This document shows positions 4,249-45,507 of a stretch of 64,000 bases of DNA, piece after piece. How positions within the stretch are numbered: the first letter of the stretch is position 1; each line of letters begins with the position of its first letter. The position numbers and the translations under genes are program-made. The DNA is from a virus, in UHGV virus genome UHGV-0038498. One strand, given 5' to 3'. The notes under the pieces are model-generated. The model made no database searches, was not told the origin of the DNA, and was given only the letters and a program-made list of their open reading frames with translations.

Positions 4249-4256
4249 TATAAATA
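4249..4256 (+). promoter_or_regulatory. late promoter TATAAATA (rI region)
   Basis: Exact TATAAATA about 30 nt upstream of ATG 4282. Confidence 0.5.
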
Positions 4257-4281: not shown

Positions 4282-4494
4282 ATGCTACAATTAACTGAAA
4301 AGCAACTTCGCAATCTTACTGTTCTTCAATTAGATGAAATTCGTAGGGAAGTTGGAAATATCATTTCAGCTTTGCGTCGAGAAGTATCACTCAACCAATC
4401 TCCGGCAGACTATACTAGATTGCGAAATTTTGAAAAATACCTTGATAAAGTTAAGGCCGTGCATCGGCATAAAGTAAATACAGGACAAAAATGA
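4282..4494 (+). CDS. hypothetical protein (70 aa), T4 rI.-1 position
   Basis: ORF track; TATAAATA late promoter 4249-4256 upstream. Confidence 0.6.
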
Positions 4495-5867: not shown

Positions 5868-6030
5868 AAAGCAGATGTTTTTAATGAAGCTAATTGAAGA
5901 ATATGCTAATGCAGTTTCTGACTATGAGTATTCTGCTCGAGAAAGAGGTACAGCTTTCGCAAAGGAAGAAATGAAAATCATGGTTGATGCTCACACAAAG
6001 CTTCAGAATTTTATTGAAAACGTCATTTAA
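5857..6030 (+). CDS. hypothetical protein (57 aa)
   Basis: Hand-translated (below track cutoff); ATG overlaps previous stop. Confidence 0.4.
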   Translation: MKTEKQMFLMKLIEEYANAVSDYEYSARERGTAFAKEEMKIMVDAHTKLQNFIENVI

Positions 6031-6068
6031 CGGTTTACAAGTTGGCAAGGTTATGGTATAGTAATCTT
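6028..6068 (+). promoter_or_regulatory. T4-type early promoter
   Basis: GTTTAC ... TGGTATAGT; imperfect inverted repeat flanks -10. Confidence 0.55.
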
Positions 6069-6197
6069 GTCAACTGCCAAGGAGAAGAGAATGAAAGTTT
6101 TGTTTGTTGTGTATGTGATGATTCAATATAATTACCCGATGTTTACTTATAATCTGGTGAACAACATTATTGATATTATTCAAAGGAGTATGTAATT

Positions 6198-6764
6198 GTG
6201 AGTGAGTCAAAGAGAATCAATATGAAACGATTAGTATTAGAAGTTAGTCCACTTTTTGGCGAATTGGCTATAGAAAAAGTAAATAACATGTATCGTTTGA
6301 CGCAAGAAGACGATATGCTATATTTTACGCCTAGTGAAATCATTCATTTAACCCAAATTGAATATCCTTATACTGATAAAATAGTAAGCATCAATGATGA
6401 GCACAAAATTCATTTTTATTCTTCATGCCCAGGATTTAATATTAAAAGTGAGTCAATGTGTTTATCAGTTATCCATTGGGACAGTTTTATAGATAAGATT
6501 AAATATTTTTATTATTCTAATGAAAGAAAACATAGTTTAAAATGGTTTAAAAAATGCAATGCTATTATTACTAACGCTTGCGATCAGTGCGATCAAAATG
6601 ATGAAACTGTTTTAAACGTATCAAAATGTTATGAAGATGGAGATGTCTTAACTATTCGTCAAATTGATGATTTTCGATCGCATATTGTCACATTTACCAA
6701 AGACGAAGCTATTGCGCTAAAGACTTATCTTGATTCTGTCATTCCAACTATGATTTCAAAGTGA
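6198..6764 (+). CDS. hypothetical protein (188 aa), paralogue of 6771-7292
   Basis: GTG start 9 nt after AAGGAG; C-terminus EAIALKTYLDSVIPTM resembles next ORF. Confidence 0.55.
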   Translation: MSESKRINMKRLVLEVSPLFGELAIEKVNNMYRLTQEDDMLYFTPSEIIHLTQIEYPYTDKIVSINDEHKIHFYSSCPGFNIKSESMCLSVIHWDSFIDKIKYFYYSNERKHSLKWFKKCNAIITNACDQCDQNDETVLNVSKCYEDGDVLTIRQIDDFRSHIVTFTKDEAIALKTYLDSVIPTMISK

Positions 6765-6770
6765 GGAAAT

Positions 6771-7292
6771 ATGTTTATTTCAAGTGGAAGTGGTTTAATT
6801 CGCGTTGAATTTAAAAATGACATCTTCTTTATTCAAGGAGATGATATTATTAAAATGAGTTATGATGAAATTAAGAAAATTTGTAATGCTCTTGAAAATC
6901 ATGGAAAGGTGAATGCTGTCATTGATATTGGCGATTTATGGGTGACACTTTATGAAATATCCGAAGGATTTAACATTGAAGATGAAAACAACATCTTAGC
7001 TATTGATAAAAGAAGTGATTTGTTTGATGTGTTAAAAGTTTATGAACAGTCAAACGGTGGAAGAAAAGCTGTATTAGTTTATCAACAACCACATTCATGT
7101 GGAACTGCTTCAATCATTTCAAATATTGAAGGCGAAGTTGATACTTACATGTGTGTTTTAAAGGCTGGCGGTGACCGTCATCCAGATTTTGTTTCTATTC
7201 GCCAAAACGGTGAAGAAATTTCATTGTCAAAATCAGAAGCTGAGGCTATGATTAAGTATTTAACATACGTTACACCTTCAATGAAAGGATGA
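6771..7292 (+). CDS. hypothetical protein (173 aa), paralogue of 6198-6764
   Basis: C-terminus EAEAMIKYLTYVTPSM shared with preceding ORF. Confidence 0.6.
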   Translation: MFISSGSGLIRVEFKNDIFFIQGDDIIKMSYDEIKKICNALENHGKVNAVIDIGDLWVTLYEISEGFNIEDENNILAIDKRSDLFDVLKVYEQSNGGRKAVLVYQQPHSCGTASIISNIEGEVDTYMCVLKAGGDRHPDFVSIRQNGEEISLSKSEAEAMIKYLTYVTPSMKG

Positions 7293-7756
7293 TTATGATT
7301 ATTAATGAAAACTCTTGGCATTATAAATTATTCAAAATGTTTAACGACGAATGGAAACGACCTAAGACATTGTGTGCATACTTTTGGTCTATTGTTATTC
7401 CTACATTTTTCGTTTCTTTTTTCGGATGTACTATACTCGCAGGTCTAACTATTATCTGTGCAGAAATCATACAGAAATGGCTTATTTTTGGTAGTTTATG
7501 GACTCTTATTCCATCAGCATTTATACTTGCCATTTTGCTTGTTTTACTTATTATTGGTTCATTTGTTATTCCTGCACAACTGCATGAAAAATATAAAGAT
7601 TATAAATGGAAAAAGGATTATGCTTTACATGTAGAAAATATTGATAGGGCGTATAAAGGTTTACCTCCTATTCAACCCAAGAAATCTATTATCGTCGAAT
7701 TTTTAAAAGCGCGTAAAGCTAAAGTATGTCCTGTTATTGAATATAAGGCTGAATGA
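7289..7756 (+). CDS. small integral membrane protein (155 aa)
   Basis: Two or three strongly hydrophobic segments; ATGA overlaps both sides. Confidence 0.6.
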   Translation: MIMIINENSWHYKLFKMFNDEWKRPKTLCAYFWSIVIPTFFVSFFGCTILAGLTIICAEIIQKWLIFGSLWTLIPSAFILAILLVLLIIGSFVIPAQLHEKYKDYKWKKDYALHVENIDRAYKGLPPIQPKKSIIVEFLKARKAKVCPVIEYKAE

Positions 7757-17481: not shown

Positions 17482-17955
17482 ATGTTATTGACTGGCAAAT
17501 TATACAAAGAAGAAAAACAAAAATTTTATAATGCACAAAATGGTAAATGCTTAATTTGCCAACGAGAACTAAATCCTGATGTTCAAGCTAATCACCTTGA
17601 CCATGACCATGAATTAAATGGACCAAAAGCAGGAAAGGTACGTGGATTGCTCTGTAATCTTTGCAATGCAGCGGAAGGTCAAATGAAGCACAAATTTAAT
17701 CGTTCTGGCTTAAAGGGACAAGGCGTTGATTATCTTGAATGGTTGGAAAATTTACTTACTTATTTAAAATCCGATTACACCCAAAATAATATTCACCCTA
17801 ACTTCGTTGGAGATAAATCAAAGGAATTTTCTCGTTTAGGAAAAGAGGAAATGATGGCTGAGATGCTTCAAAGAGGATTTGAATATAATGAATCTGACAC
17901 TAAAACACAATTAATAGCTTCATTTAAGAAGCAGCTTAGAAAGAGTTTAAAATGA
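17482..17955 (+). CDS. 49: endonuclease VII (Holliday junction resolvase)
   Basis: 157 aa, MLLTGKLYKEEKQKF...CNLCNAAEGQ matches T4 gp49; hairpin upstream. Confidence 0.93.
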   Translation: MLLTGKLYKEEKQKFYNAQNGKCLICQRELNPDVQANHLDHDHELNGPKAGKVRGLLCNLCNAAEGQMKHKFNRSGLKGQGVDYLEWLENLLTYLKSDYTQNNIHPNFVGDKSKEFSRLGKEEMMAEMLQRGFEYNESDTKTQLIASFKKQLRKSLK

Positions 17956-28807: not shown

Positions 28808-29516
28808 GTTTATATTTACAGTTATCATTATGCCATCTTGATAAATTTCCGAAAGTGGTAACTTTACCACAATGGACGCAAGTACCAGTCTTTTCAGTTT
28901 TCTTGCGTCCATTTGGATTTTTCTTGCAGAAATTTCTATGCGCTGCGATAACGCATTTCTTGCCTATCATTCCGCAGAATTCGCAGGATGTTTCTTCAAG
29001 AACGATTGCTTTAAGCCCGTTTGAGATATTATTTCTGTGTTCTTTAGACATTGGCGGTCTAACTTTAGGATTGGGATGATTTGGGCAGTTATCAAAATGC
29101 CATCGATTCATATTCCCGCTTAATCCAGACTTACCGCAATGTGGACAAGTTAGTCTTGCTTTATTAGCTACTGCATCGGACATTTTCTTTCGTGTCTCTT
29201 GGGAGAACTCTTTATTCTTTTCTATTTCCCAGAGTTTACGACGAATCCAGCCGAAAGTTTTATTGTTACGTTTAGCGTATTTCGTAGAAACTGTCATCAT
29301 GTTAGCAGCATAGACTAATTTTGGTTCAGAAGGATAAATTTTTACTAAAAGTTGATGAGCTACATAGTGCTCTTCTGGTGTTAAATCTACTAAGTTTGAA
29401 GCATCATCGCTGCCATTTAAACAGCGTGGTATAATGTGATGAGATTCAGTATAGCAATCAAGTTTTCGAGATTTAGCATTAGAGATTAACTTTTCATAAA
29501 TTAGTTTATAATTCAT
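28800..29516 (-). mobile_element. free-standing HNH homing endonuclease gene, antisense to flanking genes
   Basis: 238 aa; HNH core ESHHIIPRCLNG..N..EEHYVAHQ; three CxxCG..(RWH.DNC) Zn-knuckles; AAAGGA SD and TATAAATA on minus strand. Confidence 0.8.
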
Positions 29517-42579: not shown

Positions 42580-43205
42580 TGCTCTATCAAATGCACAAGT
42601 GCAAAGATACATACAAATATAAAGGTGCTCAGTGTTATATCATTAATCGTGAAAACGCGGGTCCAGGTCATTCGCATCAATCACGGTTTGTATTCGTTAA
42701 AAACAATGAAATTATAGCAGTTGCTAATTACATGCTTGTGACTAATGACGTTAATCCGGTGCCTTTTACATATTATAATCTAATGGATTTGGCGTACGAT
42801 TATAATTGGTTTAATCATGATACTTTGGCTCATATTGAAGGCGTAGGATTTGACATCTCTTATTCTAGTTACTCGTTGTGTCCTATGAGCAGAGCTCATA
42901 AAGAGCCTGAATATTTTTCATTTCGTCGGCGTGTAGATTTTGAACGCAGCACAGAGTATGTCGGTGGAATCTTTGTTAAAGATAATCGAATTACTCGCAT
43001 TATTTATCCTTTGGGCTGTGGTCAAAAAGATATTGATGTTGATTTAGACTTTACTGAAAACATCATTAATCATATTGCTTCTGTGTATTTTGATATTGAT
43101 CACAAAATTGTAATATGTGGATATGAATTACCGTCAGAAAAACAGTCTAAAGTAGATGTTTCTATTGATGACCAAATTTTTAATGCTTTTATGAATAGAG
43201 GTTAA
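42579..43205 (+). CDS. hypothetical protein (208 aa), 61.2/AdfA-like position
   Basis: ORF track; synteny only. Confidence 0.5.
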   Translation: MLYQMHKCKDTYKYKGAQCYIINRENAGPGHSHQSRFVFVKNNEIIAVANYMLVTNDVNPVPFTYYNLMDLAYDYNWFNHDTLAHIEGVGFDISYSSYSLCPMSRAHKEPEYFSFRRRVDFERSTEYVGGIFVKDNRITRIIYPLGCGQKDIDVDLDFTENIINHIASVYFDIDHKIVICGYELPSEKQSKVDVSIDDQIFNAFMNRG

Positions 43206-43373: not shown

Positions 43374-44402
43374 ATGCCATCAATACCTTGGATTGATAAT
43401 GAGTTTGCATACCGTGCATTAGCTCATTTACCTAAATTCGCACAAGTAAATAATAGTTCAACTTTTAAATTACGGTTTAGATGCCCTGTTTGTGGAGATT
43501 CAAAAACCGACCAAAATAAAGCCCGTGGATGGTATTATGGCGATAATAATGAAGGAAATATTCATTGTTATAACTGTAACTATCATGCACCAATCGGAAT
43601 ATATTTAAAGGAGTTTGAACCTGATTTATATCGTGAGTATATCTTTGAAATAAGAAAAGAAAAAGGTAAAAGTCGTCCAATAGAAAAACCTAAAGAACTT
43701 CCTAAACAACCTGAGAAGAAAATAATTAAATCTCTTCCGTCATGCATTAGATTAGATAAACTGGCGGAAGACCATCCAATTATAAAATATGTAAAAGCTC
43801 GTTGTATTCCAAAGGATAAATGGAAATATCTTTGGTTTACAACCGAATGGCCTAAATTAGTTAATAGTATAGCGCCAGGAACATATAAAAAGGAAATACC
43901 TGAGCCTCGTCTTGTTATTCCAATTTATAATGCTAACGGAAAAGCTGAGTCTTTTCAAGGACGTGCATTAAAGAAAGATGCTCCTCAAAAATATATCACC
44001 ATCAAAGCTTATCCTGAGGCAACAAAAATTTATGGAGTTGAACGAGTCAAAGATGGTGATGTATATGTTCTAGAAGGACCTATAGATTCACTTTTTATTG
44101 AAAATGGTATAGCTATTACGGGCGGTCAATTAGACCTAGAAATTGTTCCATTTAAAGATAGACGTGTGTGGGTTTTAGATAATGAACCTCGTCACCCTGA
44201 CACTATTAAACGAATGACTAAATTGGTTGATGCAGGAGAAAGGGTTATGTTTTGGGACAAATCTCCCTGGAAATCAAAGGATGTTAATGATATGATTAGA
44301 AAGGAAGGTGCAACCCCTGAACAAATTATGGAATATATGAAAAATAATATTGCCCAAGGGTTGATGGCTAAAATGCGGCTATCTAAATATGCTAAGATTT
44401 AA
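43374..44402 (+). CDS. 61: DNA primase gp61
   Basis: 342 aa; Zn-ribbon CPVCGDS..CYNCNYH and TOPRIM-like core. Confidence 0.93.
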   Translation: MPSIPWIDNEFAYRALAHLPKFAQVNNSSTFKLRFRCPVCGDSKTDQNKARGWYYGDNNEGNIHCYNCNYHAPIGIYLKEFEPDLYREYIFEIRKEKGKSRPIEKPKELPKQPEKKIIKSLPSCIRLDKLAEDHPIIKYVKARCIPKDKWKYLWFTTEWPKLVNSIAPGTYKKEIPEPRLVIPIYNANGKAESFQGRALKKDAPQKYITIKAYPEATKIYGVERVKDGDVYVLEGPIDSLFIENGIAITGGQLDLEIVPFKDRRVWVLDNEPRHPDTIKRMTKLVDAGERVMFWDKSPWKSKDVNDMIRKEGATPEQIMEYMKNNIAQGLMAKMRLSKYAKI

Positions 44403-44599
44403 ATTAACCCAACTAAAGCAAATGCTAAATCTACGAATGTATCAAGAGTAATTACCGGAATATTAACACCATGAGCGATAGCAATTGGCGATAAAATAAA
44501 GTTCCAGAGTAAAATTCCTACCATAGCAGAAATAGTAAAAGCTATACGTTTTTTATTACCTTTTATGGCATTAACAAGTGCCATTAATTTTTGTACCAT
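44399..44599 (-). CDS. small two-TM membrane protein, antisense (66 aa)
   Basis: Minus-strand ORF with AAGGAGGA 7 nt before ATG; convergent with gene 61. Confidence 0.55.
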   Translation of the reverse strand: MVQKLMALVNAIKGNKKRIAFTISAMVGILLWNFILSPIAIAHGVNIPVITLDTFVDLAFALVGLI

Positions 44600-44670
44600 A
44601 TATCCTCCTTATTGCTTTATATATTTATTGTATAATTAATCTACTAACCCATGAATTGAAAGGAAAAATA

Positions 44671-45189
44671 ATGGCATACTTTAATGAATGTTCACAACTG
44701 ATCGAAGGCGCTGATAAAGCTCAAAATGAATACTGGGATATTCTCGGTGATGAAAAAGACCCGCTGCAGGTTATGCTTGATATGCAGAAATCTCTGCAGG
44801 TTCGTTTAGCTAAAGATAAACCTGAATATAACCGTCATCCTGATGATTTGGCTACTGCAGGCGAAGTTGTTGATTGGCTGCGTAATCAGAAAGATTATAT
44901 TGATGATGAATTCCGCGAACTACTGACTTCTCTTGGTGGTATGAGCAATGGCGAAAAAGATGCATCTGCTGTATGGAAGCCATGGAAAGCTCAACATGGT
45001 GAACGTCGTGAAACTCTGATTACTGATTTGTCTCCACAAGACCAGTTGGAAATTAAATTCGAAATGATTGATATTCTTCATTTCGTTCTGAACATGTTCC
45101 AAGGTCTCGGTCTTACAGCTGAAGAAATCTTTAAACTTTATTATCTAAAAAATGCCGAAAACTTCGCTCGTCAAGACCGAGGTTATTAA
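44671..45189 (+). CDS. 56: dCTPase/dUTPase gp56 (MazG-like)
   Basis: 172 aa from ATG 44671; length and position match T4 gp56. Confidence 0.88.
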   Translation: MAYFNECSQLIEGADKAQNEYWDILGDEKDPLQVMLDMQKSLQVRLAKDKPEYNRHPDDLATAGEVVDWLRNQKDYIDDEFRELLTSLGGMSNGEKDASAVWKPWKAQHGERRETLITDLSPQDQLEIKFEMIDILHFVLNMFQGLGLTAEEIFKLYYLKNAENFARQDRGY

Positions 45190-45261: not shown

Positions 45262-45507
45262 ATGGCTAGTACTCGCGGTTATGTTAATATTAAAACATTT
45301 GAGCAGAAATTAGATGGAAATAAGAAAATTGAAGGAAAAGAAATTTCTGTAGCTTTCCCTCTTTATTCTGACGTTCACAAAATTTCTGGCGCTCATTATC
45401 AGACATTCCCTTCAGAAAAAGCAGCATATTCTACAGTATATGAAGAAAATCAACGTGATGCATGGATTACTGCAAACGAAGATTTGTGGAAAGTAACTGG
45501 TGAATAA
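45262..45507 (+). CDS. soc: small outer capsid protein Soc
   Basis: 81 aa MASTRGYVNIKTFEQKLDGNKKIEGKEIS matches T4 Soc; TATAAATA late promoter upstream. Confidence 0.93.
   Translation: MASTRGYVNIKTFEQKLDGNKKIEGKEISVAFPLYSDVHKISGAHYQTFPSEKAAYSTVYEENQRDAWITANEDLWKVTGE

Follow-up and report, generated by a model that had tools for sequence, protein, structure and literature searches.

The viral genome UHGV-0038498 was analysed over a stretch of 64,000 nucleotides, here called the window, in which a short minus-strand open reading frame (ORF) lies between gene 61, coding for the DNA primase, and gene 56, coding for the dCTPase. The ORF, referred to below as the small gene, encodes a protein of 66 amino acids (aa). 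As judged from sequence comparisons, its product is best explained overall as a late, holin-derived accessory inner-membrane protein of T4-like phages, a reading that we consider probable, though well short of certain. The existence of the gene is not new, since hundreds of genomes and PHROGs already list it as a hypothetical protein. Apparently unrecorded in the literature that was searched are its omission from the T4 reference annotation, the late-promoter signal with its conservation, the regulatory overlap at this locus and the remote link to holins with three transmembrane (TM) segments (3TM holins).

Coding capacity and late-type expression signals

The small gene and the two signals in front of it were placed as follows.

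44399..44599 including the stop codon, minus strand: small gene, protein-coding, 66 aa, member of PHROG 2024, MVQKLMALVNAIKGNKKRIAFTISAMVGILLWNFILSPIAIAHGVNIPVITLDTFVDLAFALVGLI (ORF list, PHROG match, substitution ratios and homologues)
44603..44610, minus strand: Shine-Dalgarno (SD) sequence AAGGAGGA, with 3 nucleotides (nt) between its end and the ATG (from the sequence)
44622..44629, minus strand: box resembling a T4 late promoter, AATAAATA, the A(-13) variant of TATAAATA, 22 nt upstream of the ATG

Between the small gene of the window and its counterparts in other Tequatrovirus phages, the ratio of nonsynonymous to synonymous substitutions (dN/dS, Nei-Gojobori method) was found to be 0.07-0.24, and between genera it amounts to about 0.1-0.5, at synonymous distances (dS) which are near or at saturation. 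The variable sites are distributed over codon positions 1, 2 and 3 as 7/2/13 in Tequatrovirus and as 6/0/11 in Mosigvirus, with position 2 being the least variable. At about 50% protein identity the reading frame is still open over 65-66 codons, and across genera an ORF of equal length persists at 25-50% protein identity. The other frames mostly contain 3-9 stops; one antisense frame is almost stop-free, which is not unusual. On these comparisons a chance origin of the ORF is excluded by purifying selection, by a length and position kept across genera and by the conservation of promoter and SD, and we hold with very high confidence that it represents a real coding gene. The same evidence supports the initial annotation, in which a minus-strand ORF of 66 aa with an ATG start had been described at these positions and taken for a genuine opposite-strand gene for a small membrane protein.

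The contrary explanation is that no gene is present, the interval consisting of the 3' untranslated region and terminator of gene 61 and the promoter region of gene 56, with an ORF that is open by chance. It draws on the lack of annotation in both T4 reference records, on the frequency of spurious ORFs of 30-60 aa in this AT-rich window and on the antisense frame that is likewise nearly without stops. However, this explanation is already contradicted by the comparative data, namely by low dN/dS while dS is near or at saturation, by the ORF of equal length across genera, by the low variability of codon position 2, by the conservation of both SD and promoter box, and by a profile search which yields a coherent family of proteins of 52-82 aa with an invariant motif; we regard it as barely credible.

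The strength of the SD noted in the initial annotation was confirmed. Within the window, AGGAGG followed by an ATG at 3-9 nt occurs in two cases on both strands taken together, and the AAGGAGG version is found at the small gene only, which has the strongest ribosome-binding site of the window. GGAG(G) is kept at all 17 related loci examined. The spacing of 7 nt given in the initial annotation did not hold, since the SD ends 3 nt before the ATG (GGAGG plus 4 nt), and its wording "strongly ribosome-bound" was abandoned, as ribosome binding is not readable from a sequence.

The core of the late-promoter-like box, ATAAATA, is present in 6 copies on both strands of the window, compared to 40 +/- 5.7 copies expected from dinucleotide-preserving shuffles, which corresponds to an approximately 7-fold depletion. 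The sites were located at 4250, 17445, 29550, 43001, 44622 and 45225. Five of the six copies are suitably spaced in front of ORFs, with the ATG of a frame of 66 aa or longer following 22-33 nt downstream. ATAAATA is therefore a good predictor of gene starts in this genome. The genes behind these copies are a 70-aa ORF at 4282, an EndoVII-like gene at 17482, an HNH endonuclease gene at 29516 (minus strand), the small gene, and soc, which starts at 45262 after gene 56. The exception, GATAAATA at 43001-43008 on the minus strand, is inside the gene 61.2 region, and the ATG directly after it opens a 34-aa ORF (42896..43000). Among the 50 T4 late promoters listed by Geiduschek and Kassavetis, 32 match TATAAATA perfectly, A at -13 is the commonest variant (9 of 50), and T4 late transcripts were described to be of either polarity (PMC2988020).

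Of 17 related loci, 16 have xATAAATA upstream of the small gene, the -13 position being A, G or C, and the box was additionally identified in two remote T4-like contigs. The conserved box is found 17-33 nt before the ATG and is retained although the flanks are unrelated and the upstream neighbour varies, being gene 56, dam, or a 186-aa gene. The counterpart in T4 is GATAAATA, near 17.71 kb, and in Dhakavirus NC-G the box and SD precede an upstream paralogue rather than the conserved gene. We infer that gp55-RNA polymerase would start a late transcript near 44616, giving a leader of 17 nt. Late expression of the small gene is likely on the basis of these signals.

Predicted membrane topology and probable relationship to 3TM holins

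The small protein belongs to PHROG 2024 over its full length, with residues 2-66 matching positions 1-65 of the 65-position profile (E 3.5e-31), and all 27 aligned relatives match the same profile. When 1.84 billion representatives were searched with the family profile, 19 hits were obtained at E < 0.001; all but one are 33-82 aa long and have the family core in common, and the remaining one is a partial match to a 449-aa protein. The core motif of the family is WN(F/Y)xxxPxxxxxGxxLPxxxx(D/E), in which P38 is invariant and W32, N33, G44 and P48 are at least 90% conserved. A Foldseek search of the AlphaFold2 model against BFVD returned family members only, and the PADLOC library gave no match to the protein of the window. 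Two subfamilies, A and B, were distinguished, and Klebsiella and Enterobacter T4-like phages carry B-type copies. Both types stand in tandem in the order A then B in Gaprivervirus (VR25 locus 1995-2401) and B then A in Dhakavirus (NC-G locus 1800-2192). The B copy of NC-G is frameshifted, by either pseudogene formation or a sequencing error, and overlaps the start codon of the A copy by ATGCTTAA, an arrangement like that of a two-gene operon.

Residues 19-42 form a clear TM segment, with a sum of about 0.4 on the Hessa scale for the TM 19-mer. Five Lys or Arg residues are present on the N-terminal side of this segment compared to none on the C-terminal side, a bias which is family-wide, and the N-terminus is therefore predicted to be cytoplasmic. 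The C-terminal 19-mer, in contrast, has a Hessa-scale sum of about +6 kcal/mol and contains two Asp, so that it is no autonomous TM segment. The AlphaFold2 model (mean predicted local distance difference test score 79.8) shows helices at residues 2-11, 15-42 and 52-63, and the protein ends in ...ALVGLI, uncharged after D57. The product is very probably a membrane protein. Of the two TM segments claimed in the initial annotation, the one at 19-42 was recovered, while the second was replaced by the 12-residue C-terminal helix of the model. In the predicted topology, the basic N-terminus with its five Lys or Arg would be located in the cytoplasm, followed by one TM helix at about 19-42 containing Trp32-Asn33 and Pro38; a short periplasmic turn with Gly44, Pro48 and the acidic residue 53 would then lead to a hydrophobic C-terminal helix folding back.

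A relationship to "Holin of 3TMs" was indicated by hits that are weak but agree with one another. The Pfam family PF11351 (GTA_holin_3TM) takes its name from rcc00556, a putative holin belonging to the gene transfer agent of Rhodobacter capsulatus (PMC3423380). At E <= 5, PF11351 was hit by three of the 27 family members, the best at E 0.03 with 15.3 bits; its gathering threshold of 24.8 bits was reached by none of them, and the protein of the window gave no hit. A match to phrog_3427 (holin) was obtained at E 5e-4, and tblastn gave a match to the annotated 3TM holin of phage DSL-LC05. The PF11351, phrog_3427 and tblastn matches all fall on the same C-terminal region, and the part of the holins that they reach is the one aligned by hhalign. 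For profile comparison, a set of 16 diverse holins was assembled, each confirmed by PF11351 (57-78 bits) and phrog_3427. A genome-contig scan in search of more holins yielded only 3, and only 10 loci were obtained in single-protein scans of viral contigs.

In hhalign, the 27-sequence family was aligned to TM2-loop-TM3 of the 16 holins with a probability of 90.3% (E 1.5e-6, score 38.0). As a control, the reversed family alignment gave 0.2% (E 0.33, score 10.6), and 200 column shuffles gave probabilities of at most 10.3% with mean scores of 10.6-12.0, a standard deviation of about 2.5 and a maximum of 21.3, which places the real score about 10 standard deviations above the shuffles. The remote members alone scored 94.3% against the holins (E 9.6e-8, score 44.7), and subfamily A scored 98.5% against the remote members (E 1.6e-15, score 74.6), so that a chain of similarity leads from subfamily A over the remote members to the holins. 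When 961 ORFs of the window served as decoys, the family hidden Markov model (HMM) also placed the holins ahead of nearly all of them. In the alignment, about 50 residues are in one register with TM2-loop-TM3, beginning with an aromatic-polar-aromatic triplet, in which WNF corresponds to YQF or WNY of the holins, followed by Pro, Gly, LP, an acidic residue and GL. The holin-like character, one of three candidate functions named in the initial annotation, thus has a counterpart in a real, though indirect, profile-profile similarity to the PF11351/phrog_3427 holins; the functional role is only inferred. For the other two, a toxic-peptide and an exclusion role, the context gives weak hints at most. 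The small protein is no member of PF11351 by these scores, and homology to the 3TM holins is rather favoured by the profile comparisons.

Several observations weigh against a holin-derived late protein. Against the holins, subfamily A alone reached 56% (E 1.1e-4, score 28.5) and subfamily B alone 5% hhalign probability. The protein of the window matches no Pfam or NCBIfam entry (PF11351 was not found at E <= 10), and the holin HMM gave the small ORF an E of 0.42 among the 961 ORFs, which is not significant. With no significance at the sequence-to-profile level, the likeness could still stem from convergence of short TM hairpins. The small protein has half the length of the 3TM holins and is without their first hydrophobic segment, long amphipathic helix and (I/V)NxxEA...GWRP motif, its N-terminal alignment to the holin being at background (hhalign 0.1%); it also has no charged tail, whereas the holins end in GGLR(T/S)(F/Y)EKxKG. 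Most holin genes examined adjoin an endolysin or cell-wall hydrolase gene, whereas the small gene never adjoins an endolysin gene in the T4-like loci examined. At the putative promoter, the box is off consensus at -13 (A in the window, G in T4 and C in Gaprivervirus). A literature search covering ribosome profiling, transcription start site mapping, unannotated T4 ORFs and locus tags found no study of the small ORF. Finally, T4 t-null mutants do not lyse and their metabolism continues, which counts against an autonomous hole-forming or depolarising activity.

The strongest form of a holin role would be an autonomous second holin or pinholin which permeabilises the inner membrane by itself at the end of infection. 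Arguments for such an activity are the remote PF11351 similarity, the name "Holin" in the UniProt entry of one homologue, the late-promoter box, and the resemblance to class II holins in size and hairpin layout. However, because T4 t-null infections do not lyse and several defining features of holins are absent, it is very unlikely: the charged C-terminal tail and an adjacent endolysin are missing and all Pfam scores are under the gathering threshold. A possible dual start, M1-x-x-K4-x-M6, is confined to Tequatrovirus, a single N-terminal Met being present in the proteins from Mosigvirus, Dhakavirus and Gaprivervirus.

An accessory membrane or lysis role is favoured because of the late-type promoter, the membrane location, the holin-like hairpin and the buried, near-invariant Asn. 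Buried Asn residues drive the association of TM helices, and the small protein may self-associate or bind a membrane partner through its Asn/Pro-containing helix. As an accessory holin-derived protein it could tentatively be assigned a modulating effect on inner-membrane integrity or lysis timing, while the primary holin role in T4 would stay with T. A lysis-related role is possible, but we would not expect it with any confidence. Somewhat more doubtful is the full proposal of an unstudied late, holin-derived two-helix microprotein in T4 and essentially all enterobacterial T4-like phages which helps to control inner-membrane integrity; examples of such control would be tuning of the triggering time of the T holin, lysis inhibition or membrane depolarisation. 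Should the holin relationship hold, T4-like phages keep a truncated holin-fold protein beside the unrelated holin T, and the 200-bp gene is an easily mutable candidate for unexplained lysis timing or envelope control. If the lysis or membrane-control reading is also true, a new component would be added to one of the longest-studied lysis systems.

Distribution and layout of the locus

By tblastn, homologues of the small gene were identified in 693 phage records, about 500 of them at 90% identity or more (Tequatrovirus) and 190 at about 50%. The T4 copy is 95.5% identical and is located at 17738-17935 of AF158101.6, between dam and gene 61 and on the strand opposite to both. In neither of the two T4 reference records examined, AF158101.6 and NC_000866.4, is the gene annotated. 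In hundreds of other records it is listed as a hypothetical protein, for example as RB32ORF030w, VR7ORF033w, RB55_p033 and VR25 gp031. The initial annotation had named a non-coding interval in relatives as a finding that would speak against the gene; this describes the two T4 reference records, yet the T4 omission is an annotation gap that does not count against the gene, given the hundreds of other records in which the ORF is annotated. T4 serves as the reference genome for a very large group of phages, and the 309 bp separating dam from its gene 61 are regarded as non-coding. Within them lies a gene that is subject to purifying selection, has a late-type promoter and is conserved in at least five genera; it merits addition to the T4 reference annotation.

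The presence of dam between genes 61 and 56 in T4 had been stated correctly in the initial annotation. The implied replacement of dam by the small gene, or its peculiarity to this phage, was not upheld, since T4 has the ORF at 95.5% identity beside dam and a layout without dam, like the one of the window, was found in 323 of 555 matching phage records. Yersinia phage fPS-65 has dam and a 186-aa gene inserted between the upstream region of the small gene and gene 56. On this comparison, dam in T4 is an insertion between the promoter or upstream region of the small gene and gene 56, and the small gene is no substitute for dam.

In several T4-like lineages the small gene keeps this position, facing gene 61 tail-to-tail on the opposite strand, with stops that usually overlap. 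Besides Tequatrovirus, it is conserved in Mosigvirus (phage 55), Dhakavirus (NC-G), Gaprivervirus (VR25) and Gelderlandvirus (UoN_LG358_1), and it is also kept in two divergent T4-like contigs of metagenomic origin; one of these has a 124-aa gene between the small gene and the primase gene. In the T4-like loci examined, the neighbours are always primase 61 and dCTPase 56 (or dam). In NC-G, an 18-nt gap is present between the small gene and gene 61 (locus 2193-2225), with a hairpin TAGGGAGGAAACTCCCTA followed by the T-rich tail TATTTTAG, which is possibly a terminator for the converging genes. In Tequatrovirus, in contrast, the stops overlap and the terminator is inside the small gene.

Distant homologues were also identified in bacterial chromosomes. 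In E. coli, copies of 67-70 aa are situated where a lambda-like prophage has its outer end, with the host genes yegD/alkA or YliH beside them, in a module which also contains a T4-type lysozyme gene, a SegE-like GIY-YIG fragment and a gene for a DUF2730 protein and which looks like DNA acquired from a T4-like phage. When this context was checked for a lysis cassette, the T4-type lysozyme gene was found nearby and the intervening genes gave no informative matches, so that the result is ambiguous. A 37-57-aa ORF overlaps the start of each of these prophage copies. The idea that the family arose from an internally deleted or split holin, with the N-terminal helix or this upstream ORF as the holin N-terminus, was rejected (hhalign 0.1-1.5%). 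In the chromosome of Raoultella terrigena (locus 6001-7368), a homologue called at 97 aa matches the family with its last 59 aa. It is located directly upstream of a 166-aa RelA/SpoT-like gene which matches the PADLOC candidate PDC-S33 (E 3.8e-18). The surrounding island is flanked by insertion sequences, also holds a 186-aa gene without a family match, and may represent a defence or toxin-antitoxin module.

These contexts bear on the possibility that the protein is a conserved membrane protein with a job outside of lysis, such as exclusion, defence or anti-defence, or modulation of a host membrane complex, its holin likeness reflecting ancestry or a shared fold. The prophage copies beside host genes are in a typical "moron" position, the Raoultella copy precedes a gene matching a candidate defence protein, and in T4-like phages the small gene is in the replication-gene region, far from the lysis genes. 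On the other side stand the late-type promoter box, whereas the T4 exclusion proteins Imm and Sp are encoded by early genes, the negative PADLOC result for the protein itself, and the location of the prophage copies within about 1.5 kb of a T4-type lysozyme gene, in the ambiguous context described above. We consider a non-lysis membrane role possible at best, and nearly as likely as a lysis-related one.

The small gene shares its DNA with signals of both neighbours, which are located on the plus strand.

43374..44402, plus strand: gene 61 (DNA primase), convergent neighbour (ORF list; annotation of matching records)
44672..45189, plus strand: gene 56 (dCTPase), divergent neighbour (ORF list and sequence; annotation of matching records)
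44565..44594, plus strand: terminator-like hairpin ATGGCATTAACAAGTGCCAT followed by TAATTTTTGT, within codons 2-12 of the small gene (pattern scan)
44610..44636, plus strand: putative middle promoter of gene 56, with the MotA box TATTGCTTTA at 44610-44619, an 11-bp spacer and the -10 element TATAAT at 44631-44636 (consensus match)

The TTAA palindrome at 44399-44402 is common to both stops, the TAA of gene 61 covering 44400-44402 and the stop of the small gene 44401-44399, which bears out the convergent overlap described in the initial annotation; the interval between genes 61 and 56, described there as about 270 bp, was measured as 269 nt from the gene 61 stop to the gene 56 ATG at 44672. A 203-aa ORF starting with GTG (44578..45189, plus strand) corresponds to gene 56 extended upstream through the promoter region into the small gene. 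This ORF almost certainly represents an open-frame artefact, the true start of gene 56 being the ATG at 44672.

In the region, four terminator-like sites were found by pattern scan compared to 0.7 expected. The hairpin site within the small gene is identical in T4 and was predicted independently by the annotators of Yersinia phage fPS-65. A hairpin terminator of this type was not found in the Mosigvirus or Gaprivervirus loci examined, and the embedded hairpin was rejected as a general feature of the locus, being confined to Tequatrovirus, where it is a probable end of the early/middle transcript of gene 61. On the upstream side, the rule for middle promoters is (a/t)(a/t)(a/t)TGCTTtA at 12 +/- 1 bp from TAtaaT (PMC2988021), and the MotA-box promoter presumably serves gene 56. 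The minus-strand late box is inside the spacer of this plus-strand middle promoter, back to back with it, and the predicted late start near 44616 falls inside the MotA box. The locus is thus an example of compact, time-shared DNA, with a late promoter in the spacer of a middle promoter, a terminator inside an opposite-strand gene and two stops in one TTAA.

The late mRNA of the small gene and the 3' tail of the early/middle transcript from gene 61 would be complementary to each other. The two strands would be read at different times in infection, because the gene 61 transcript is early/middle and the small-gene mRNA late. No dedicated antisense promoter stands out, sigma-70-like sites numbering 6 compared to 5.8 expected by chance, and the sole antisense transcript predicted is the gene 61 mRNA in its tail portion, which extends as far as the hairpin at 44565-44594. 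The antisense arrangement given in the initial annotation therefore holds for the opposite strand, but the complementarity is limited to the untranslated 3' tail of gene 61 mRNA and involves no coding region.

On the basis of this complementarity, a type I toxin-like role was considered, in which synthesis of a toxic hydrophobic peptide would be repressed by gene 61 mRNA, with its fully complementary 3' tail as antisense RNA. The protein is small and hydrophobic, the early gene 61 transcript must cross nearly the whole ORF in antisense before it reaches the hairpin, and one family member gave a very weak match to Ldr_toxin (E 0.1). However, a dedicated antisense RNA gene or promoter was not identified, and the strong SD is placed in a short AT-rich leader with no sign of a sequestering 5' structure, the structure not having been examined in detail. 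In addition, the embedded terminator is restricted to Tequatrovirus, a far narrower range than that over which the protein is conserved, and the conserved periplasmic turn and C-terminal helix suggest a specific fold rather than a generic toxic helix. The toxin explanation finds little support and is improbable.

Comparison with known systems

Type I toxins like Hok, Ldr and TisB resemble the small protein in being small hydrophobic membrane peptides whose mRNA is complementary to another transcript. In the present case, however, complementarity is to the tail of an mRNA that codes for a protein and to no dedicated small RNA, the SD is strong and seemingly exposed, and the gene is that of a lytic phage with a late-promoter box; the Ldr_toxin match was confined to one of the 27 family members.

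Class II holins and pinholins, like S21-68 of phage 21, are likened to the small protein by description only, having about 65-70 aa and a two-helix hydrophobic hairpin. In contrast to them, the small protein has neither a conserved dual start nor a charged C-terminal tail, its charged segment being N-terminal.

The T4 holin T and antiholin RI are late inner-membrane proteins with a single clear TM segment each and large functional periplasmic domains. The small protein, again likened by description only, is predicted to share with them the inner-membrane location, the late expression and the one clear TM segment, whereas only about 24 residues follow its TM segment in place of the large periplasmic domains. 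We know of no r-type or lysis mutation between dam and gene 61.

The hypothetical proteins of PHROG 2024, among them RB32ORF030w, VR7ORF033w, RB55_p033 and VR25 gp031, correspond to the small protein over the full length as members of the same family, and their genes occupy the same slot in the same orientation.

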